Notes under the pieces: model-generated
The model's input: only the letters and a program-made list of their open reading frames with translations
Database searches by the model: none
What the model was told of the DNA's origin: nothing
Virus record (IMG/VR): IMGVR_UViG_3300043410_001242
From: a virus
Length of the DNA stretch: 64,000 bases
Strand: one strand, 5' to 3'
Shown: piece after piece, positions 4,155 through 55,047 of the stretch
How positions within the stretch are numbered: position 1 is the first letter of the stretch
Layout: each line of letters opens with the position of its first letter
Translations under genes and position numbers: made by a program

Positions 4155-4372
4155 TGTTATTTGACTTTCTGTTTAAGAACAGAAGTGGAGACACTTCTAT
4201 TAATGAACGTATTGATAATCAGGAGTTTACTGATAGTGAAATTGAGAATCTAGTAAAGGATGAATTGAAAGTCCTCACCCTTGGTGAATTGGTTGACTAT
4301 TATTTTGAAACCAGGTGTAGAGAACTTGATAAGATTAAACCTAAGACACGAAAGAAAAAGGTTGCCAAGTGA
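4154..4372 (+). CDS. hypothetical protein
   Basis: AGGAG RBS, TAATG coupling. Confidence 0.55.
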   Translation: MLFDFLFKNRSGDTSINERIDNQEFTDSEIENLVKDELKVLTLGELVDYYFETRCRELDKIKPKTRKKKVAK

Positions 4373-6800: not shown

Positions 6801-7949
6801 ATGACTAAAAATCAAAGTGAATTTCTTGATGCTGTTAAACAGGTTCTTGGTGATAAAATGGTTCTGACCCGATCTGAAATTGATCAGGTCGTGTCAGAGA
6901 AAGGTGTTAAGTTTCCATATTGGTTAACCACCAAGTCGAAGTTTCGTATTGGTCGAGGTGAGTATTCTCTACCTGGTAATGAAACAACCAAGGTAGCAGT
7001 AAAAATGGAAATGCCTGAACCTGTCGAGGCAATGGCTCAGGTGTCGTATCTACGTCAACCTAAACTGGTCGATGAGTCTGATACTGCCATTCCAGAAATT
7101 TGGCCTGATTATGTACCATTTGGTTTTTATAAAGATTTACTTAATATTGTAAAATCTAAGATGTTTTATCCAGTATTTGTTACTGGTCTGTCAGGTAATG
7201 GTAAAACTCTGATGATCGAACAAGTGTGCGCTAAACTGAAAAGGGAGTGTATCCGTGTTAATGTATCTATCGAAACTGATGAATCTGACCTATTGGGTGG
7301 TCCTACTCTCGTTAATGGTAATGTTGTTAATCGAGATGGGCCGGTTCTTATAGCAATGAAACGTGGTGCGGTACTTTTGATTGATGAGGTGGATCGTGGA
7401 TCGAATAAGCTTATGTGCTTGCAAGGTATTCTTGAAGGAAAGCCATATTATAACAAGAAAACCGGCGAGGTCGTATACCCAACCGACGGTTTCAATGTCA
7501 TTGCGACCGCAAACACCAAAGGTCGTGGTTCAGAAGAAGGTCGGTATCTTTCACAAGTTCTTGATGATGCCTTCCTGGAACGGTTTCCTATCACGGTAGA
7601 ACAGGAATACCCGGATGTCAAGACTGAGAGAAAAATTCTCGCACCGTTGATCTCCGACCAGGAATTCATCGACAATCTGGTCAAGTGGGCGGATGTGGTG
7701 CGCCAATCATTCGACCAAGGTGCCATTGATGAGATTATTTCTACTCGCCGACTGGTGCATATCGCGAAAGCATTCCAAATCTTCGGTGATCGTAAAAAGG
7801 CAATTGAACTTTGTGTAAATCGTTTTGATACTGACACTAAGAATGCTTTTGTTGATCTATATACTAAAGTCGATGAAAAGGTTGAAGAAGACCAGACCAA
7901 GGTTTGGGTGAATGAAACATTAACTATAAATGAAGAAGTGCCGTTTTAA
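6801..7949 (+). CDS. CobS/MoxR-like AAA+ ATPase of T4-like phages
   Basis: GLSGNGKT, LLIDEVD, ATANTKGRGS, LDDAFLERF, IISTRRLVHI. Confidence 0.9.
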   Translation: MTKNQSEFLDAVKQVLGDKMVLTRSEIDQVVSEKGVKFPYWLTTKSKFRIGRGEYSLPGNETTKVAVKMEMPEPVEAMAQVSYLRQPKLVDESDTAIPEIWPDYVPFGFYKDLLNIVKSKMFYPVFVTGLSGNGKTLMIEQVCAKLKRECIRVNVSIETDESDLLGGPTLVNGNVVNRDGPVLIAMKRGAVLLIDEVDRGSNKLMCLQGILEGKPYYNKKTGEVVYPTDGFNVIATANTKGRGSEEGRYLSQVLDDAFLERFPITVEQEYPDVKTERKILAPLISDQEFIDNLVKWADVVRQSFDQGAIDEIISTRRLVHIAKAFQIFGDRKKAIELCVNRFDTDTKNAFVDLYTKVDEKVEEDQTKVWVNETLTINEEVPF

Positions 7950-7960
7950 AGGAGAATTGG

Positions 7961-8713
7961 ATGTTTTTCTTTTTTAAGAAAAAGCCAGTATATCTGGATT
8001 GTTTTACTACACACACAGGAGCCTTTCACGCTCCTGTGGATTATTCATATAGGTTTTATCCTGATTGGTGGAAACTACTGGAAAAAACTGTTACAGATGA
8101 GGAATATGGAGATTTAGGTGTAGAAAATCCCACAATGAAGAATTGTGTGGGTTTTATAGATTTTTTCAAAAATTCTATAACTGTACCGATGTGGAGTGAC
8201 TTCTCATTACGTTTAGGAACAAAATACAGGCCTGGATATAACTGGAAATTTGCAGATGACTTTTCACGAATAGAAGTGCATAAACCTATGCAATGGGGTT
8301 CATTTTTTCCAGAAAACAAATATCTTCATGGAAAATTTGTTAGTCCATGGAAATTCAAATGTAAAGAAAACATATACTTTCAAAAATGTGGACCTTTTTA
8401 TAACATTCTCAATCCACACCTTATTATGTTTCCCCCAGGTTTACTTGAGTTCAAGTATCAAGCCGCAGTTAATGTTAATTTTCTTTTAGTGCCACAAAAC
8501 GAAGAATGTAATATGTTTATGAAGTATTATGATCCTTTGGTGCATTTTACTCCTCTTACAGAAAGGCCAGTTAAACTGAAAATACATCTTGTTTCACATG
8601 AAGAATACGAGAAGATTGGACTAACATTTGTTTCGTTTAATAGAAATTATTATAAAATGAAAAGGGCATCAAAGAATAGTAGTGTTTGCCCGTTTACACA
8701 CCCTAATAGGTAA
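7961..8713 (+). CDS. conserved phage hypothetical protein
   Basis: PDWWK...TMKNCVGFID...SPW; C-terminal CPF. Confidence 0.65.
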   Translation: MFFFFKKKPVYLDCFTTHTGAFHAPVDYSYRFYPDWWKLLEKTVTDEEYGDLGVENPTMKNCVGFIDFFKNSITVPMWSDFSLRLGTKYRPGYNWKFADDFSRIEVHKPMQWGSFFPENKYLHGKFVSPWKFKCKENIYFQKCGPFYNILNPHLIMFPPGLLEFKYQAAVNVNFLLVPQNEECNMFMKYYDPLVHFTPLTERPVKLKIHLVSHEEYEKIGLTFVSFNRNYYKMKRASKNSSVCPFTHPNR

Positions 8714-8717
8714 TATT

Positions 8718-8960
8718 ATGACAGAAGATGAAAAGTTGAATTTTAAGGAATTACTCAAGAGTAATGTTGTAGAAGTTGAATTCACCAAGTTAAATGGTGA
8801 ACAAAGAGTAATGAATTGCACTTTGATGGAATCATATCTACCACAGACGGATTCAACAAAAAGCAAGAACCAAGACAATTCTTTGGCCGTTTGGGACATT
8901 GATAAGAATGGTTGGAGGAGTTTTAGATATGAAAACATTACGTCCTTTGGTCTAAAATAA
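8718..8960 (+). CDS. Sm-like/WYL_2-type small protein
   Basis: VEFTKLNGEQRVMNCTL...VWDIDKNGWRSFR. Confidence 0.75.
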   Translation: MTEDEKLNFKELLKSNVVEVEFTKLNGEQRVMNCTLMESYLPQTDSTKSKNQDNSLAVWDIDKNGWRSFRYENITSFGLK

Positions 8961-8963
8961 ATC

Positions 8964-9004
8964 TTGACAAAATTACTCAAGAATAGTATAATCCAGTATA
9001 AATA
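8964..9004 (+). promoter_or_regulatory. tandem sigma70 promoter and T4-type late promoter upstream of pmoC
   Basis: TTGACA 8964-8969, N17, TATAAT 8987-8992; TATAAATA 8997-9004. Confidence 0.8.
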
Positions 9005-9091
9005 GTTTTGATGATGTGGAGAGTGTGACAGGATGTCGCACCTAACTCACAAGGACGTATTTTGTAACTTTAAGATGTAAAGAGGTATAAT

Positions 9092-9868
9092 ATGTCAGCT
9101 ATTAGTGCAAATGCTGTTAGAGAGGAAGCACCAGTCTTGAATAAGGCTTGGTTGTCTTTCGCGTTTGGTTTGTATTTCGTATTCTATCTATGGGTACGTT
9201 GGTATGAAGGTGTATATGGTTGGTCCGCAGGACTTGATTCATTCGCACCTGAGTTTGAAACCTATTGGATGAATTTCTTATATACAGAAATTGTCCTAGA
9301 AGTCACAACCGCAAGTATTCTTTGGGGTTATCTTTGGAAGTCAAGAGATCGTGATCTTGCCAATATTACACCAAGAGAAGAACTTCGCCGTAATATGACA
9401 CACCTTGTATGGTTATTTGCTTATGCAAATGCAATCTACTGGGGTGCATCATACTTTACTGAACAAGATGGTACTTGGCATCAGACTATCGTAAGAGATA
9501 CTGATTTTACTCCAAGTCATATCATTGAGTTCTATCTTACATACCCAATCTACATTATTACTGGGTTTGCTGCATTCCTTTATGCAAAGACAAGACTTCC
9601 TTACTTCGCACAAGGACTTAGCCTTCCATACTTGGTAACTGTTGTAGGACCATTTATGATCCTTCCAAATGTTGGTCTTAATGAATGGGGACACACCTTC
9701 TGGTTTATGGAGGAACTTTTTGTCGCCCCTTTACATTATGGTTTCGTGTTCTTTGGTTGGCTTGCTTTGGCTATTGCGGGTGTATTGCTACAGGTCTTCT
9801 CATCTTTTGCTGGTTTAATCGGCGATCAGATTGTTGAGTCTGTTGATAAGGGTTTGATTGCAAAGTAA
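9092..9868 (+). CDS. pmoC: particulate methane monooxygenase subunit C (auxiliary metabolic gene)
   Basis: VRWYEGVYGWSAGLDSFAPEFETYWMNFLYTE, EQDGTWHQTIVRDTDFTPSH, NVGLNEWGHTFWFMEELFVAPLHYGF; C-terminus VDKGLIAK resembles Methylococcus PmoC. Confidence 0.97.
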   Translation: MSAISANAVREEAPVLNKAWLSFAFGLYFVFYLWVRWYEGVYGWSAGLDSFAPEFETYWMNFLYTEIVLEVTTASILWGYLWKSRDRDLANITPREELRRNMTHLVWLFAYANAIYWGASYFTEQDGTWHQTIVRDTDFTPSHIIEFYLTYPIYIITGFAAFLYAKTRLPYFAQGLSLPYLVTVVGPFMILPNVGLNEWGHTFWFMEELFVAPLHYGFVFFGWLALAIAGVLLQVFSSFAGLIGDQIVESVDKGLIAK

Positions 9869-9888
9869 TCTAACTCACATAACCAAAC

Positions 9889-9916
9889 AAAGGGGAACTT
9901 CGGTTCCCCTTTTTTA
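9889..9916 (+). terminator. intrinsic terminator after pmoC
   Basis: AAAGGGGAAC-TTCG-GTTCCCCTTTTTT. Confidence 0.9.
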
Positions 9917-9922
9917 TTGCAA

Positions 9923-9978
9923 TTTTAATGGAATCTTAATATAACTGTAATACTCCGGTAACATTCCTGTGATAAAAT
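9923..9978 (+). promoter_or_regulatory. array of Pho-box-like 11-bp direct repeats plus extended -10
   Basis: TTTTAAT-4-TCTTAAT-4-CTGTAAT-4-CGGTAAC-4-CTGTGAT, then TGaTAAAAT. Confidence 0.5.
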
Positions 9979-10009
9979 ACCTTCGTATTTTTAAACAACG
10001 GAGACATAA

Positions 10010-10726
10010 ATGAAGAAATGGTTACTTTTAGTTCTTATTCTTATATCACATTCTGTATTCGCGAATGGAGAAGGTTCTGAACAATTATTTGGACAATGGA
10101 CACAGTTTGCAGCTTACGGTAATTTTGGTAACAAAAGTCCTTGGATTTGGTGGACTGATGTTGCAGTAAGAAGTTCTCAGAATCATAAAGCAAAAGACGG
10201 AACACAAGGTTATGACGTTGGTTCTATTCCAACTCATAGCGCAGTAGGATACCAATTTGATCCATCCAATTCTTTGATGTTGGGTTATACATATCAGTAT
10301 AGTCAACCACCATACGCAAAGAAATCAACCAATGAAAATCGTATCTATCAACAATTTCAAAACTCTTTAGATTGGAAAGAAAACGGTAAACTAACAAACA
10401 GAACTAGATATGAACAGAGATGGGTTACATATTCCAGTGAAATGGCTCAAAGGTTGAGACACCAAGTTAAGTTTCAATATCCTATCAATAAAGACTGGGG
10501 ATTCGTAATTAGTGATGAATTGTTTCTAAATATTAATAGTGTAAACTGGGGACCAAAGGCTGGATTTGACCAGAATAGAGTGTTTATTGGACCCGTTTAC
10601 AATATAGATGACAGACAGAGAGTAGAGTTTGGTTACATGAATAACTATGTAAACAAAGACTTAAAATCAGATCTAGATAATGATGTGTTAGTTATTAACT
10701 ATTATTACAATTTTACAGATTATTAG
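10010..10726 (+). CDS. DUF2490-like outer-membrane beta-barrel protein
   Basis: Signal peptide; ENRIYQQ, RTRYEQRW, RLRHQ, ELFLN, GFDQNRVFIG, EFGYMN; aromatic C-terminus. Confidence 0.8.
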   Translation: MKKWLLLVLILISHSVFANGEGSEQLFGQWTQFAAYGNFGNKSPWIWWTDVAVRSSQNHKAKDGTQGYDVGSIPTHSAVGYQFDPSNSLMLGYTYQYSQPPYAKKSTNENRIYQQFQNSLDWKENGKLTNRTRYEQRWVTYSSEMAQRLRHQVKFQYPINKDWGFVISDELFLNINSVNWGPKAGFDQNRVFIGPVYNIDDRQRVEFGYMNNYVNKDLKSDLDNDVLVINYYYNFTDY

Positions 10727-10734
10727 GAGGAATT

Positions 10735-10806
10735 ATGTGGGAAAAACCTTCATTTAAAGACATTCGTTTGGGATTTGAAGTAACTACCTATATCTACAAT
10801 AGATAA
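10735..10806 (+). CDS. pqqA: PQQ precursor peptide PqqA (23 aa, missed by ORF track)
   Basis: MWEKPSFKDIRLGFEVTTYIYNR matches the W-x-K-P...R-x-G-F-E-V-T-x-Y pattern with the ExxxY core; AGGAGG RBS at 10725-10730. Confidence 0.92.
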   Translation: MWEKPSFKDIRLGFEVTTYIYNR

Positions 10807-10807
10807 C

Positions 10808-10836
10808 TTGACAAAACATTCTTATTGTGATACAAT
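10808..10836 (+). promoter_or_regulatory. sigma70-type promoter
   Basis: TTGACA-N17-TACAAT. Confidence 0.7.
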
Positions 10837-10861
10837 ATATACTAAATTATGGAGAGTGAAA

Positions 10862-11182
10862 ATGGCAAAGCATAAGTTTGTTGTAATTAAAGGCAGAAAC
10901 CTTTTTGTAGGAATTCATGGGTTACAGTATGAGATTTTTGATACTGTAACCTTTGAATGCAAGGAAGAACAAGTCACAGACTTACAACGGAAGTACGTCT
11001 ATCGTAAACTACATACAGTAGACAACAAAAGTAATCCACTTTCTTTTCGCAGAAAAGTGTATTGTCGTAGGCGTCATATTCTAAAACATGACGGGTCTAT
11101 CTTTGCAGATAGAATCAAATTATTTGACCATGAAGATGGAACATATTACGGGTTTATTCCTGTAGAGTGTTTTAAATTCTAA
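10862..11182 (+). CDS. hypothetical protein
   Basis: ATG 10862 after GGAG; the track's TTG start lies in the -35 box. Confidence 0.6.
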   Translation: MAKHKFVVIKGRNLFVGIHGLQYEIFDTVTFECKEEQVTDLQRKYVYRKLHTVDNKSNPLSFRRKVYCRRRHILKHDGSIFADRIKLFDHEDGTYYGFIPVECFKF

Positions 11183-11216
11183 TCAAATCTTTCTGTTAAC
11201 AACTAGAGGTAATTAA

Positions 11217-11609
11217 ATGAAGAAGCTTTTTGTATTTGTACTTTCTGCATTTCTTTTTGGATGTGCGGGCACCACTAAGTGGGAACCTACTCTGAATAGT
11301 ATGCCACACAAGAATCAGGCGGCCGAGTCGAAGGATCTTGCAGAGTGTAAGGATCTCGCGTTCCAGGCGGCAGGGTACGTCAAGGAAGGTGCAGAATGGG
11401 CATTTGTGAGTGCCGCAGGTGGTGCTGCTGAAGGCGCCGTGATCGGTGCCTTGGTGTCTGGTGCTGGTGGCGCAGGTATGGCCGCTGCAGCTGGTGCACC
11501 AATTGGTGCAATCGCCGGTCTCTGGTATGCTGAATATGAAGCAGATATTAATTATAAGAGAGCATACTCAAATTGCCTATTCCAGAGAGGTCATTATCCT
11601 ATTAACTAA
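11217..11609 (+). CDS. glycine-zipper lipoprotein
   Basis: Lipobox LFGC; DLAEC...GGAAEGAVIGA...CLFQRGH. Confidence 0.75.
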   Translation: MKKLFVFVLSAFLFGCAGTTKWEPTLNSMPHKNQAAESKDLAECKDLAFQAAGYVKEGAEWAFVSAAGGAAEGAVIGALVSGAGGAGMAAAAGAPIGAIAGLWYAEYEADINYKRAYSNCLFQRGHYPIN

Positions 11610-11628: not shown

Positions 11629-11654
11629 AAAGGGACCTTCGGGTCCCTTTTTTT
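11629..11654 (+). terminator. intrinsic terminator
   Basis: AAAGGGACC-TTCG-GGTCCCTTTTTTT. Confidence 0.9.
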
Positions 11655-11688: not shown

Positions 11689-11718
11689 GTGTCATACATT
11701 ATGAGTTAAGTGATTGTT

Positions 11719-12090
11719 ATGAATCTTGAATCGTTTTTTGAAACTTCCACTCCACAGGACCTTGGTCAGTTCCTGACTCAATCGAAACAGGAATTAAAGG
11801 CCAAGGTCCAATCTAAAATTCGCCAGCGCAGATCACAAATGTTGGTGCATTCATATATCTATTATGTTCTAGACGATAATATCGTTTCTGATGACAAATG
11901 GCAACAATGGGCTAATGAATTGCGTGATATACAAAAGGAATATCCGGAGTATTGCAAAATCAATTTCTTTGATAGAGAATTCTCAACATGGAACGGTGAT
12001 TCCGGTGCCTTTCTGCCGTTAAAAGATCCATACGTTATTCGCAAAGCGAATTACATTTATAATCTGGTGAAAAATGAAGAAAACAAATAA
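11719..12090 (+). CDS. protein resembling the N-terminal (Ia) domain of NAD-dependent DNA ligase
   Basis: HSYIYYVLDDNIVSDDKWQQWANEL...EYPE. Confidence 0.6.
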   Translation: MNLESFFETSTPQDLGQFLTQSKQELKAKVQSKIRQRRSQMLVHSYIYYVLDDNIVSDDKWQQWANELRDIQKEYPEYCKINFFDREFSTWNGDSGAFLPLKDPYVIRKANYIYNLVKNEENK

Positions 12091-20120: not shown

Positions 20121-20265
20121 AATTGAAATCTGTAGAAAATGTGAACATTTAAATACAGTTCTTGTTCAATGTAAAGTATGTGGATGTTTTCTCCACGCAA
20201 AAGCAAGAATGGAAGGTCAAGACTGTCCCAAAGGAAAATGGGTCTTGACAAAAGGAGAGGAATGA
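20083..20265 (+). CDS. small Cys-rich (DUF6171-like) protein
   Basis: R.EICRKC...CKVCGC...KA...CPKGKW. Confidence 0.7.
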   Translation: MTTEQRLTEFKDRIEICRKCEHLNTVLVQCKVCGCFLHAKARMEGQDCPKGKWVLTKGEE

Positions 20266-20273
20266 TATATAAT
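20245..20273 (+). promoter_or_regulatory. sigma70 promoter of tmRNA
   Basis: Perfect TTGACA-N17-TATAAT. Confidence 0.85.
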
Positions 20274-20279
20274 ACAAGG

Positions 20280-20601
20280 ATTCGTTGATGTTGACAAAAT
20301 AGGTCACCTTGGACGGGAGTTCGACTCTCCCCACCTCCACCAAAAGCACATTGGGCACCCTGGTTAACGATAACACCTGAACCCAATCTTAATCATTGTA
20401 ACAGTGTGCTTCTGATGGGGGTGTATTGGTTTTCGACAGGGGATAGTAAAGGTCAACGGAGAATCGGCAAAGCTAAAGTCGTTAGGATTGGGAGTTCCCG
20501 GTCAAAGAGGCAAATTAAATTAAACGCAAACGATGACGTTTATTCTTACGCACTAGCTGCTTAAGCGGGGTTTGGGGGTTCCTTGTCAAATAATACCCCC
20601 T
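20280..20601 (+). ncRNA. ssrA: circularly permuted (two-piece) tmRNA; tag (A)ANDDVYSYALAA
   Basis: T-arm GGGAG-TTCGACT-CTCCC, then CACCTCC-A-CCA (to 20342), precede the 5' strand GGGGGTG (20417). 7-bp acceptor stem with G3:U70; tag frame 20526-20564. Ends are approximate. Confidence 0.92.
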
Positions 20602-20618
20602 CTAATTTTGAGGGTGAC

Positions 20619-21236
20619 ATGAGTTTTTCTGAAGATGGTTTTGAAGTAGTAAGATCCTTCATAAATCCACAAACAATGAATCTATTGAAGCACGAATATC
20701 ATACACTACTGGACTTATTGTTTGAAAATCAAACATATAGTGAACAATCTATCAAGTTTCCAACAGGAGAAGTACTGACCTGTTTCAATTGGTATTCTCC
20801 AGTATTCACTGAATCTCTGTCCAAGTTATTGCAAAATAAAGTAGAAGAAATTGTAGAAAAGAAATTAGTTCCAACATACAGTATGGTGAGAACCTATAAA
20901 ACTGGAGATGAATTATATAAACACAGAGACAGGCCGAGTTGTCAATACTCTGTTACTATGCCAATATTGACATCTATTAATTGGCCTATATACATAACTG
21001 ATAGAAAAAATGTTAACAGAAAAGTATACCTAAACGAAGGTGATATGCTTGTTTATGATGGTTTTCTGGAACATTGGAGAGAAAAATATGAAGGTGAAAA
21101 ACACACACAATGCTTCCTACATTGGGTTGACGTTAATGGAAAATATAAATACCTAAAATATGACGGAAGAGCCAATTTAGCTCTACCAATGGTGAAAATA
21201 ACAGAAGAAAATGAAGCTTTCTTCAACAAACACTAA
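20619..21236 (+). CDS. putative 2OG-Fe(II) oxygenase
   Basis: LVPTYSMVRTY, HRDRPSC, WPIY, GDMLVY, HWRE, QCFLHWV. Confidence 0.75.
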   Translation: MSFSEDGFEVVRSFINPQTMNLLKHEYHTLLDLLFENQTYSEQSIKFPTGEVLTCFNWYSPVFTESLSKLLQNKVEEIVEKKLVPTYSMVRTYKTGDELYKHRDRPSCQYSVTMPILTSINWPIYITDRKNVNRKVYLNEGDMLVYDGFLEHWREKYEGEKHTQCFLHWVDVNGKYKYLKYDGRANLALPMVKITEENEAFFNKH

Positions 21237-51066: not shown

Positions 51067-53422
51067 TACAGTTTCCCAAATCAGTTATAATAATACTTTC
51101 GGCGACTGGGTAGTTGCAACAAATTCATTGATACGAGAAAACAATGATTTTGCCGCAAACAACTTTGTTAAACCTACGGGAACTCTTTTTCTAAATGAAC
51201 CCACTCTCGGTTTACAGGTAGCAAACAATGCAATCGTTGCAGGTCAATTACAGGTAACAGGTGTAGGTTCTTCTGCTCTAGTACAAAACAACCTTCGCGT
51301 TGACAGACAAGTATATTTCACAAATACCACATTAGGTTTGGTCAACTCAGGCCAAGCAAATATTGGTGGTATATTGATGGCACTTGGTTCAGGTACAAGT
51401 CTTTACGCCGCAAACTCGGTGCATATCAGTGGCACCACCAGAATGAACAGTACTGTGATTATCACAGGTAATACAAACATATCAAATACTGTTTACATCT
51501 CAGGTACAACAAATATTTCCAATACTGTCTATGTAACAGGAAGTGGAAGTATGACTGGTTCACTTGTAATCGGTGGTTCAGCAGCCGCTATTGGTGCTAT
51601 ACAGGCCAACTTCCTAAAAGGAAATACTGGTGTAGATACTACCACCATGACATCCAATATCATTAGAAATACTGGTATTGCATACACAGACACATTACAA
51701 GCAAACAACCTTGTAACAACAGCCAACTTAATTGTTACTGGCGCAAGTTACTTTGACGTTATCAACGCAAATACTGCATTTGTTGGTCCTAAAATATCCA
51801 TTTCAAGTCTGTTTGATGCCAATTCTGCGGCAGCATTCTTCGGTTCTGTAAAGACAAACAGTGATTTGGTTGTTGGCGGCAACTTTGTAATTAACGGAAC
51901 AACCGTATACAACTCCAATACTCTGATTATCAGTTCAAATCTTCCAAATCAAAACTGTTTGTTTGGAACATTCAGAACAGCACAAACCGGAAATTCATAC
52001 ATCAAATGGAATGAAACCAACAAGTATTGGGAAACAAATGACGTTTTCACTGGTACATACTATAGGTTGTTAACAGACCAGTATGCCAATAACTCACTAA
52101 CAAATTCAAGTTCTTCGAATGTTGCCACATCTTTCGTGGCCAATACAATATACACCTATTCACAAGCAGCATTTGCTCTAGCTAACACAACAGCATCAAC
52201 ACTGTCTGCTAATACTTCTACACTAAGCAACTCAATAAGTGTAATTCAAGGTGTTGATCTTACACAGAACACCAATATAACCAATCTAACAAATTGGTTG
52301 AGTTCTAATGTGTCTTATACACAAGCAATCAACAATGCACAGAACTCAGCAATAACAATTATACAGGGTGTTGATAACACACAGAATACAGTCATCAACA
52401 ACCTATCAAACTCTCTGACATCAAATGTTACATATCTGAATGGTATTGCAAATACACAAAATAGTACAATAACGTCTGTAAACAATTATGCACAGTCCGC
52501 GTTCGACAGAGCAAATAATGCGTCAGCCGCATTAACATTTAATGGTTCTACTGGTTCTGCAAATGCAAATGCCGCAGGTTACCTGGTTATAACTGGCAAT
52601 ACTGGTGTATCTGTAGTAGGTTCTTCAAATATATTGACGATTAACCTGCCACAAGACCTTAGACAATCAGCAAATCCTTCGTTCACCACTATAACATCAT
52701 CTGTTGCTAATGGTACTGCACCATTCTCCGTAACTTCGTCTACGATGGTTAATAACCTAAACGCACAGTATATTGGTGGTCAACCATTATCATACTTCGG
52801 TGATGCTGCAAACCTATCAGGAACCATACCTTCAGCAGTTCTAGGAAATTCAGCACTGTTTGTTGGTACTTCATCAATATCATTAAACAGAACTAGTGGC
52901 ACACAGACACTAACGGGAGTTAGTATTGATGGTTCTGCCGGTTCAGTTATGGCAAATACCATAACAGGAACAACATTATCAAGTAGTGTTGCAAACTCAT
53001 CCATAACTTCACTGGGCACATTAACAGCATTAAATGTTAATGGTGCAATGTCACTTACTGGTAACCCAGCAATAACAGGACAAGCTAGTGCGACAAAGGG
53101 ATATAGAGAAGGTGTGGTTGCAGTAGGTACTGTTTCAAGTCCAACAAACTTAGACTTGTCTCTAGGTAATGTATTCACTCTAACTCTGGCTGCAAGCACA
53201 ACACTTACATTCACTAATGTTCCTTCTTCTGGTTCAGTGTGTTATGTAACTCTTGTTATTACACAAGACGGAACAGGAAGTAGAAATCCATCATTCTCAC
53301 CAACACCCAGATGGACAGACAGTTCTGCACCTACGTTATCCGGCGCAAATAAAATAGATGTATTGACTTTCTTGTGTGTTGCAGGAAGTTTCTACGGTTC
53401 TTATGCAATGGCAAATATGTAA
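51059..53422 (+). CDS. tail fibre protein
   Basis: NTFGDW...TN N-terminus, QNT coiled-coil repeats, C-terminal LDLSLGNVF...TQDGTGSR domain. Confidence 0.75.
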   Translation: MANTVSQISYNNTFGDWVVATNSLIRENNDFAANNFVKPTGTLFLNEPTLGLQVANNAIVAGQLQVTGVGSSALVQNNLRVDRQVYFTNTTLGLVNSGQANIGGILMALGSGTSLYAANSVHISGTTRMNSTVIITGNTNISNTVYISGTTNISNTVYVTGSGSMTGSLVIGGSAAAIGAIQANFLKGNTGVDTTTMTSNIIRNTGIAYTDTLQANNLVTTANLIVTGASYFDVINANTAFVGPKISISSLFDANSAAAFFGSVKTNSDLVVGGNFVINGTTVYNSNTLIISSNLPNQNCLFGTFRTAQTGNSYIKWNETNKYWETNDVFTGTYYRLLTDQYANNSLTNSSSSNVATSFVANTIYTYSQAAFALANTTASTLSANTSTLSNSISVIQGVDLTQNTNITNLTNWLSSNVSYTQAINNAQNSAITIIQGVDNTQNTVINNLSNSLTSNVTYLNGIANTQNSTITSVNNYAQSAFDRANNASAALTFNGSTGSANANAAGYLVITGNTGVSVVGSSNILTINLPQDLRQSANPSFTTITSSVANGTAPFSVTSSTMVNNLNAQYIGGQPLSYFGDAANLSGTIPSAVLGNSALFVGTSSISLNRTSGTQTLTGVSIDGSAGSVMANTITGTTLSSSVANSSITSLGTLTALNVNGAMSLTGNPAITGQASATKGYREGVVAVGTVSSPTNLDLSLGNVFTLTLAASTTLTFTNVPSSGSVCYVTLVITQDGTGSRNPSFSPTPRWTDSSAPTLSGANKIDVLTFLCVAGSFYGSYAMANM

Positions 53423-53439
53423 TTAAACTTATAGTAATT

Positions 53440-55047
53440 ATGAAAAATGAAATTGAGTCTATTATCATCGTTGGAGGTGGCAGTTCTGGTTGGATGACCG
53501 CAGCTGCCATTATCAAAAACCTACCAAATATAAAGTTAACCCTAATAGAATCTCCAAACATACCAATCATCGGTGTGGGTGAAAGTACCTTAGGACACAT
53601 TAATGAATATATGCATTTTATCGGTCTCAAAGACGAAGACTGGATGAAACACTGTAATGCAACATATAAAACATCGATAAAGTTCACCGACTTTGCTAAC
53701 AACCCACAAGAAAAACCCACATCATTTCATTATCCATTTGGTTGTTTTGATTTCACAGATAAACCCACTGGAATAATGGATTGGTTTATATACAAAGCCA
53801 AGAATCCAGACACACCCAACAGCAACTTTGCTGAATTCTATCATGACGCTGTTTTTATGATAGATGAAAACAAATTGACAAAAAATGAAAATGGTTGTAT
53901 AAGAAATTTCATTTTCAATAGGGATACCGCATACCATATGGATGCCTCACTCTTTGGAAATTATCTAAGAGATCATATCTGTAAACCAAATAATATCAGA
54001 CACATACTATCTAATGTGAAGGACATCAAACTGGACAAAGAGGGTGCAGTGACATCCGTTGTTACTGACTCGGGTGAATATGATGCGGACCTGTATATTG
54101 ATTGTACTGGATTTAAATCTCTGATATTAGATCAGAAAATGAAAGTGCCTTTCATGTCGTTCCATGATACACTAATGAATGACAGAGCAATTGCAACTAT
54201 TATTGACTATGTTGATAAAGAAAAGGAAATGGAATCAGTTACAAACTGCACTGCTATTGAGTGTGGTTGGGTGTGGAACATTCCATTATGGAACAGAATA
54301 GGAACTGGTTACGTTTATTCAAGTGAATTCGCAACCGAAGAACAAGCATTAGAACAATTTAAGAGACACCTAAAGTCAAACAGAATGATATGTCAAGATG
54401 ATGATAGGGTTGAAAAGGCCGAATACAGACATATCAAGATAAGGCATGGTGTACATGAACAATCTTGGGTAAAAAATGTTGTTGGTATAGGACTGTCAAA
54501 TGGATTTATCGAACCATTAGAATCAACAGGCCTTATGTTGACACATGAAGCAATTTTAAAAATGGTGAACATACTTAAAACTCGGAATTGTGTAGTCACA
54601 AAATTTGATGTGGATGGTTACAACTTCAATCTTAGACAACAAATTCTAGGATTTAAAGAATTCATCTCTTTACATTATGCATTAAGTGCCAGAAGAGATA
54701 CTCCATATTGGAAAAAAGTATCTCAACAAATAACATATTGTCCTTCGATGTTGGATAAAGAGACTGGATCAAATCAGTATGCGAATGTGTCCAATTTCGG
54801 AATATCAAAAAGAGAATTCAATTCAGATATGGGTGGAATACCATATATTGCAGCAGGAATGGGTTTAAATCCAGTGGATGATCGTAGAGTAGATTTTATA
54901 AATAGGTTACAAGATTCCAATGCTGATGAATATTTTTGGGCAAGGACGAGAGATGTGTGGGAACTTCACGTTAGAGATTTGAAAAGGATATTAAAGAGGT
55001 TGCCAACACACTATAAATATCTTTTAGATAATATTTACAACAAGTAA
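53440..55047 (+). CDS. flavin-dependent (tryptophan-type) halogenase
   Basis: VGGGSSG, GVGEST, ATYK (catalytic Lys position), AYHMDA, IDCTGF, GWVWNIPL, GFIEPLESTG; ATG 53440 preferred. Confidence 0.9.
   Translation: MKNEIESIIIVGGGSSGWMTAAAIIKNLPNIKLTLIESPNIPIIGVGESTLGHINEYMHFIGLKDEDWMKHCNATYKTSIKFTDFANNPQEKPTSFHYPFGCFDFTDKPTGIMDWFIYKAKNPDTPNSNFAEFYHDAVFMIDENKLTKNENGCIRNFIFNRDTAYHMDASLFGNYLRDHICKPNNIRHILSNVKDIKLDKEGAVTSVVTDSGEYDADLYIDCTGFKSLILDQKMKVPFMSFHDTLMNDRAIATIIDYVDKEKEMESVTNCTAIECGWVWNIPLWNRIGTGYVYSSEFATEEQALEQFKRHLKSNRMICQDDDRVEKAEYRHIKIRHGVHEQSWVKNVVGIGLSNGFIEPLESTGLMLTHEAILKMVNILKTRNCVVTKFDVDGYNFNLRQQILGFKEFISLHYALSARRDTPYWKKVSQQITYCPSMLDKETGSNQYANVSNFGISKREFNSDMGGIPYIAAGMGLNPVDDRRVDFINRLQDSNADEYFWARTRDVWELHVRDLKRILKRLPTHYKYLLDNIYNK
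55012..55019 (+). promoter_or_regulatory. T4-type late promoter for the downstream cassette
   Basis: TATAAATA inside the halogenase 3' end. Confidence 0.5.

Follow-up and report, generated by a model that had tools for sequence, protein, structure and literature searches.

An orphan pqqA gene downstream of pmoC in a T4-like phage predicted to infect methanotrophs

A 23-codon gene of the PqqA family, encoding the precursor peptide of PQQ, lies within a phage genome downstream of a stand-alone pmoC gene. It is unaccompanied by pqqB-E, varies between related phages in the manner of a gene under purifying selection, and has counterparts in phages of other C1-oxidising hosts. Probably this stand-alone pqqA is functional and serves a T4-like phage of the Methylococcales as an auxiliary metabolic gene, supplying precursor to the PqqB-E enzymes of the host. 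Three elements of this reading are inferred, namely translation of the peptide, its processing by host enzymes, and a benefit to the phage.

The pqqA reading frame and its genome

The gene occupies positions 10735-10806 on the + strand, stop codon included, of a 64,000-nucleotide stretch of viral DNA (IMG/VR record IMGVR_UViG_3300043410_001242), which is referred to here as the window. The frame opens with ATG, comprises 23 codons, closes with TAA and encodes the peptide MWEKPSFKDIRLGFEVTTYIYNR; it is present in a single copy in the window. The original prediction had singled out a 23-codon reading frame at this place, and its exact coordinates, start and stop were reproduced. Both curated hidden Markov models for the family match the peptide over their full length. 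The Pfam model PqqA (PF08042) scores 42.4 bits (E=6e-11) against a cut-off of 21.1 bits, and the NCBIfam equivalog TIGR02107 scores 42.2 bits (E=5e-11) against a cut-off of 20 bits, about twice the cut-off in each case. With 23 residues the peptide falls within the range of ~20-30 that is typical of PqqA peptides with a Glu-x-x-x-Tyr pair, the two residues from which PQQ is formed. The predicted W-x-x-P leader and E-x-x-x-Y core are both present, as W2-x-x-P5 and E15-x-x-x-Y19, the core reading E15-V-T-T-Y19. Within the N-terminal leader, by which PqqD would recognise the peptide, W2, K4, P5 and the block D-I-R-L-G-F are conserved and agree, at the level of sequence, with the family models. 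By the verdict of both models the frame is assigned to pqqA, and the proposed identification is correct.

The signals expected of a translated gene accompany the frame in the window and in its relatives. A Shine-Dalgarno sequence, AGGAGG, is found at 10725-10730 (+), 4 nt 5' of the ATG, just as had been described. In the relatives this spot is taken by GGAG or AGGA, so that a ribosome-binding site is present in five of five copies. A PqqA model search of small six-frame reading frames, which had been put forward as a check, was carried out on the window and 80 related loci, divided into 30,387 stop-to-stop segments; it returned five segments above noise, all of them true PqqA copies, and a runner-up at 8.8 bits. 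The frame is very short, as a chance ORF or an untranslated stretch might be, and such an origin is nevertheless scarcely credible. The model E-values are ~5e-11, only true copies rise above noise among all the segments scanned, the ribosome-binding site is conserved and variation tracks codon positions (described below); the sequence evidence has effectively refuted this reading already.

The window encodes a set of T4-like structural proteins, including baseplate wedge subunits (521 and 276 bits), a baseplate hub, a tail tube cap, a tail protein and gp32. Phage-type genes flank pqqA on both sides, and the GC content of the window is uniformly low (0.32-0.41). To judge by this gene content and composition, the window belongs to a T4-like tailed phage and is neither a bacterial contig nor a host flank. 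Within the 64 kb examined it combines a stand-alone pmoC with myovirus-type structural genes, the features by which pmoC-phages are recognised. A blastn search with positions 9000-11300 of the window returned no match among GenBank phages, and an exact-match search of IMG/VR with its pqqA likewise returned none. PmoC of the phage shares 86-87% identity with its Methylococcales counterparts, and this order also supplies all of the nearest bacterial PqqA peptides, which agree at 16-18 of 22 residues (Methylohalobius, Methylomicrobium, Methylobacter, and Methylothermaceae). On the similarity of PmoC and PqqA, the host is predicted to be a gammaproteobacterial methanotroph of the Methylococcales, and PQQ-dependent. 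Clusters of pqqABCDE are found in Methylococcales loci L152, L153, L160, L170, and L181, the PqqB, C, D and E proteins of L170 having been verified with NCBIfam equivalogs. Members of the order also have orphan pqqA genes located away from pqqBCDE, as in Methylomicrobium lacus (L154) and Methylobacter (L165).

Several further features were recorded in the window. A phage-encoded permuted tmRNA is located at 20279-20564 (+), with a match to RF04321 of 109.6 bits (gathering score 47); ARAGORN calls the tmRNA at 20249-20655, with the tag peptide ANDDVYSYALAA. A gene of the flavin-dependent tryptophan-halogenase family (53374-55047, +; PF04820, 352 bits) lies among tail and baseplate genes. The ORF at 11710-12090 (+; PF22745, 95.6 bits) consists of the N-terminal Ia domain of NAD+-dependent DNA ligase alone and is conserved in loci L005 and L011-L014. 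About 1 kb upstream of pmoC, a MoxR/CbbQ-type AAA+ ATPase is encoded at 6801-7949 (+), with an AAA_5 domain and a CbbQ/NirQ/NorQ C-terminal domain. Proteins of the CbbQ/NorQ type are enzyme activases in bacteria.

Gene order and transcription signals around pqqA

The pmoC gene, for subunit C of particulate methane monooxygenase, is located at 9092-9868 (+) and matches PF04896 (AmoC) with 406 bits and TIGR03078 with 380 bits. The predicted location of pqqA beside pmoC is thus borne out, by an AmoC-family gene in a genuine tailed-phage genome. Its immediate neighbours are a WYL_2 gene on the 5' side (8682-8960) and a DUF2490 gene, and neither pmoA nor pmoB is adjacent in the 64-kb window examined. 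A sigma-70-type promoter-like site precedes pmoC at 8964-8992 (+), with TTGACA, a 17-nt spacer and TATAAT, a 12/12 score that reflects consensus match only; an equivalent 12/12 site is found upstream of pmoC in the related viral contig L014. On the 3' side of pmoC there is a terminator-like hairpin with a 10-bp stem and a T-run (9889-9912, +). Hairpins also occur at the equivalent place between pmoC and pqqA in L014, as a terminator-like stem at 4269-4294, and in a second relative, L008, at 2673-2692. The latter contig has in addition a strong terminator after pqqA, at 2814-2837. By bracketing pqqA, such hairpins could govern the balance between transcripts of pmoC and pqqA, or lend stability to the short pqqA RNA.

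Between the pmoC hairpin and pqqA, the DUF2490 gene (10010-10726, +; PF10677, 143 bits) encodes a predicted secreted outer-membrane beta-barrel protein with a signal-peptide-like N-terminus. Homologues are found in 43/61 Methylococcales genomes, with a top identity of 45%. Given the intergenic gap of 8 nt and the overlap of its TAG stop (10724-10726) with the AGGAGG of pqqA, the DUF2490 gene probably shares a transcript with pqqA and is probably coupled to it in translation. A promoter-like site was looked for between the pmoC hairpin and the DUF2490-pqqA pair and none was found, so that transcription of the pair may rely on read-through. The space between pmoC and pqqA is a cargo slot, which is empty in L014, holds a metallophosphoesterase and a GT4 glycosyltransferase in a third relative, L010, and holds DUF2490 in the window. 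In L014 and L008 only 74-77 nt separate pmoC from pqqA, against ~2 kb in L010. On this comparison of relatives the DUF2490 gene is a cargo insertion between the two genes, and it may represent a further piece of cargo that came from a host and is expressed together with pqqA. DUF2490 was also considered as a conserved partner of pqqA and rejected in that role, as it is present in the window only, among all loci fetched.

A promoter directly after the pqqA stop had likewise been predicted, and a promoter-like site for the next gene is found at 10808-10836 (+), with TTGACA, a 17-nt spacer, TACAAT and a TG extension (11/12). The site is kept in L014 (4372-4401, 12/12) and in L010. Downstream of it lies a conserved ORF of 106 aa (10862-11182, +), with 59-72% tblastn identity in relatives and no Pfam family. 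The possibility that this ORF is specific to pqqA was rejected: it follows pqqA in L010 and L014, yet occurs without pqqA in L005 and L011-L013. It is followed by a candidate glycine-zipper-like lipoprotein of 130 aa (11217-11609, +), for which the glycine-zipper matches are weak and below cut-off. This candidate has 82-87% identity in L010 and L014 and forms part of the same variable island as pqqA; a terminator-like hairpin lies beyond it at 11629-11650.

Distribution, constraint and orphan status of the phage gene

Among 80 IMG/VR pmoC loci, four other viral contigs (L008, L009, L010, and L014) have pqqA downstream of pmoC on the same strand. The five pmoC-linked copies all agree at 14 of the 23 residues, among them W2, K4, P5, the block D9-T17, and Y19. 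Variable columns number 7, 7, and 17 at codon positions 1, 2, and 3, respectively, which places 17 of 31 at the third position. For these copies pS is 0.45-0.96, near saturation, pN is 0.09-0.29, and pN/pS is 0.19-0.35, as estimated from a small sample of 22 codons. The pattern is consistent with pqqA being a translated gene under constraint, maintained by purifying selection, within the limits of a 22-codon sample. The GC content of the gene is 0.32, a phage-like value, as against ~0.40 for pqqA of Methylococcales; this phage-like base composition argues for long residence in phage genomes.

The gene is also found in four of ten large pmoC-phage contigs (G001-G004), at varied positions 45-72 kb from pmoC, and one of these contigs (G003) is a complete genome of 372 kb with terminal repeats. 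It was not found in the other six large contigs, four of which are at least 98% complete, nor in smaller fragments of several close pmoC relatives. Within the pmoC-phage group pqqA is recurrent and, since its distribution is patchy, dispensable. The many pmoC phages that lack the gene, and its position in a cargo island that varies in content from one relative to the next, are what might be seen if pqqA were a neutral passenger, captured with host DNA and kept without benefit to the phage. That reading is quite unlikely in view of the near-saturated synonymous change at a low pN/pS and of a core that is invariant across diverged phages, to which are added the phage-like composition of the gene and its varied genomic positions in G001-G004. 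Further evidence against it comes from the host genomes checked, in which pqqA is not beside pmoC (the two are ~16 kb apart in G012), and from phages of other C1 hosts, where pqqA turns up again in lineages unrelated to these.

The biosynthetic partners of PqqA do not travel with the viral gene. The window had been predicted to lack pqqB-E, and tblastn with verified Methylococcales probes confirmed this for the full 64 kb; within the fetched flanks, PqqB-E were found in 0 of 152 viral sources (the window and 151 loci). As a positive control, the same probes matched 63 of 79 bacterial pqqA loci, 53 of the 63 with full BCDE, and most bacterial copies of pqqA are directly upstream of pqqB. Five large pmoC-phage contigs, including the complete pqqA-bearing 372-kb genome, gave no match above cut-off to PqqB, C, D or E. 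The related contig G002 encodes a generic radical-SAM-like ORF that scores 26 bits against the PqqE model, for which the cut-off is 381. This ORF could be taken to favour a role for the peptide in a phage-specific pathway, in which unrecognised enzymes of the phage would make a different modified peptide from it. Such a role is most improbable, as the encoded peptide is a canonical PqqA and neither a PqqD-like chaperone nor a PqqE-like enzyme is found in the complete genome G003 or in any viral locus.

The phage peptide departs from its bacterial counterparts within the core. At the position of the second Thr of E-V-T-T-Y in the window, bacterial copies have Met in 75/88 and Thr in 0/88, in a scan whose pattern permitted Thr at that position. 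Other viral copies carry E-V-T-C-Y. A Thr or Cys in the Glu-Tyr spacer, rare or absent in the sampled bacteria, might be expected of a decoy or inhibitor that binds host PqqD or PqqE, serves as a poor substrate, and throttles or redirects PQQ synthesis. A decoy is nonetheless very unlikely: every position conserved in the PqqA models is retained, including E15 and Y19, the bacterial Met is kept in 51 of 76 viral copies, and the accompanying pmoC suggests boosting of C1 oxidation, not blocking. The sole 'bacterial' PqqA with an E-V-T-C-Y core comes from a MAG labelled 'uncultured Luteolibacter sp.' (L206, CAYWLC010000001.1). This locus has no adjacent pqqB-E and a flank GC of 0.34, and on these grounds may be a phage contig binned into the MAG.

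Precursor supply and comparison with known systems

PqqA is the only component of PQQ biosynthesis that is consumed stoichiometrically, one peptide being destroyed for each cofactor made. With pqqA present and pqqB-E absent in both the window and related phages, feeding of the host enzymes is the best-supported mechanism, and we infer it on that basis. The phage would encode the consumable precursor only and leave the enzymes to the host. As catalysts, the pqq enzymes should outlast the onset of infection, and the short peptide and its mRNA would be exhausted first if host transcription falls. Host PqqD would bind the phage peptide and host PqqE would cross-link E15 to Y19, after which host PqqB, PqqC, and a protease would complete PQQ. 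The supply of PQQ for methanol dehydrogenase would in this way be sustained during infection, at a step directly following the pMMO reaction, which the phage pmoC presumably supports. The influence of the phage on methane oxidation would cover the methanol step besides pMMO, provided that infected cells process the peptide. PQQ-dependent bacteria follow the same logic of precursor supply. Methylophilaceae have 3-12 copies of pqqA and a single pqqB-G set (PMC4109929), and according to work cited in a passage of PMC9851590, purified PqqA added to a cell extract gave rise to PQQ.

A broader proposal, judged slightly less likely than not, is that selection has kept pmoC and pqqA together in one lineage of Methylococcales phages, as a module of two genes that supports two successive steps of methane oxidation. 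Adaptation to fast processing by the host would then account for the phage-specific E-V-T-T-Y and E-V-T-C-Y cores. In a module of this kind PmoC would serve pMMO and PqqA would serve the PQQ of methanol dehydrogenase, an enzyme that would also return electrons towards pMMO.

The original prediction further implied that a phage-encoded pqqA would be novel, and here it does not stand. PqqA was reported in a methylotroph phage population of Lake Baikal, VP_266 (Coutinho et al., 2020, Microbiome 8:163, PMC7678222), and stand-alone pqqA is common in methylotroph phages; as a kind, viral pqqA is already known. VP_266 was assigned to Methylophilaceae and encodes methanol dehydrogenase, for which a boost in PQQ was proposed (PMC7678222). 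Like VP_266, the window shows a freshwater phage that is uncultured, has a C1-oxidising host and carries PqqA as a stand-alone gene, but here that host is predicted to be a methanotroph of the Methylococcales and pqqA is partnered by pmoC. None of the ORFs annotated in the window was seen to encode methanol dehydrogenase.

In its affinity to large freshwater phages of myovirus type with a stand-alone, Methylococcales-like pmoC, the window resembles the pmoC-phages (Chen et al., 2020, Nat Microbiol 5:1504, PMC7674155). The supplementary family table of that study includes one singleton PqqA family, of 36 aa and from one genome, without comment, and neither the adjacency of pmoC and pqqA nor the occurrence of pqqA in four of ten large pmoC contigs is described there (PMC7674155). 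Besides pmoC, some pmoC-phages carry another gene directed at the pathway of methane oxidation; it was missed in the original description because gene callers skip ORFs of 23 codons.

Cultured phages of methanol-oxidising Methylophilales provide a further comparison. A tblastn search of GenBank phages returned 12 records with pqqA, 10 of which are phages: Venkman, four Melnitz isolates, MEP301, MEP401, MEP402, LD28 phage P19250A, and Manatee Spring podovirus. The two records named 'Acinetobacter phage MD-2021a' were rejected, as they are bacterial contigs with full pqqABCDE next to ppk. The contig L236 (CAKLQF020000010.1), which carries this label, is 144 kb in length with ppk and full pqqABCDE, and looks like a bacterial chromosome mislabelled as phage. 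Every cultured OM43/LD28 phage that the GenBank search returned has pqqA, and six of six peptides tested pass TIGR02107 (34-41 bits). In the phage records that were opened, the gene is either unannotated or hidden by a 'hypothetical protein' called over an ORF on the opposite strand. The former is seen in Venkman (L231, MT375522.1), where an intact pqqA at 9977-10045 lies in an unannotated gap of 211 bp, antisense to its neighbours, and the latter in Melnitz (L232, MZ577097.1), where an intact pqqA at 76140-76205 lies under an opposite-strand 'hypothetical protein'. There is a lesson here for annotation, pqqA being absent from that of every cultured OM43/LD28 phage record inspected. A search of the open-access literature found no paper joining OM43, phage and pqqA. 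A pattern-based scan of IMG/VR yielded 71 viral contigs with a PqqA ORF, and stand-alone pqqA recurs independently across phages of C1-oxidising hosts.

The OM43/LD28 phages of Methylophilales share with the window an orphan pqqA of 23-24 codons in genomes without pqqB-E. Unlike the window, they infect another host order and have no pmoC, and their peptides read T-E-M-R-F-G-F-E-V-T-M-Y where that of the window reads K-D-I-R-L-G-F-E-V-T-T-Y (identity 48-57%). The PqqA peptides of bacterial Methylococcales, some of them orphan copies as well, belong to the same family and have the same length as the phage peptide, to which they are identical at the 16-18 of 22 residues given above; they differ in having D-L-R-F and E-V-T-M-Y in place of D-I-R-L and E-V-T-T-Y, and the GC content of their genes is higher. 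Set beside these systems, what is new is modest, and consists of the occurrence of pqqA in pmoC-phages of Methylococcales, its close linkage to pmoC in one lineage, and the phage-specific variant of the core. With these, a little-noticed viral strategy of supplying the precursor only would extend from the methanol-oxidising Methylophilales to the methane-oxidising Methylococcales.
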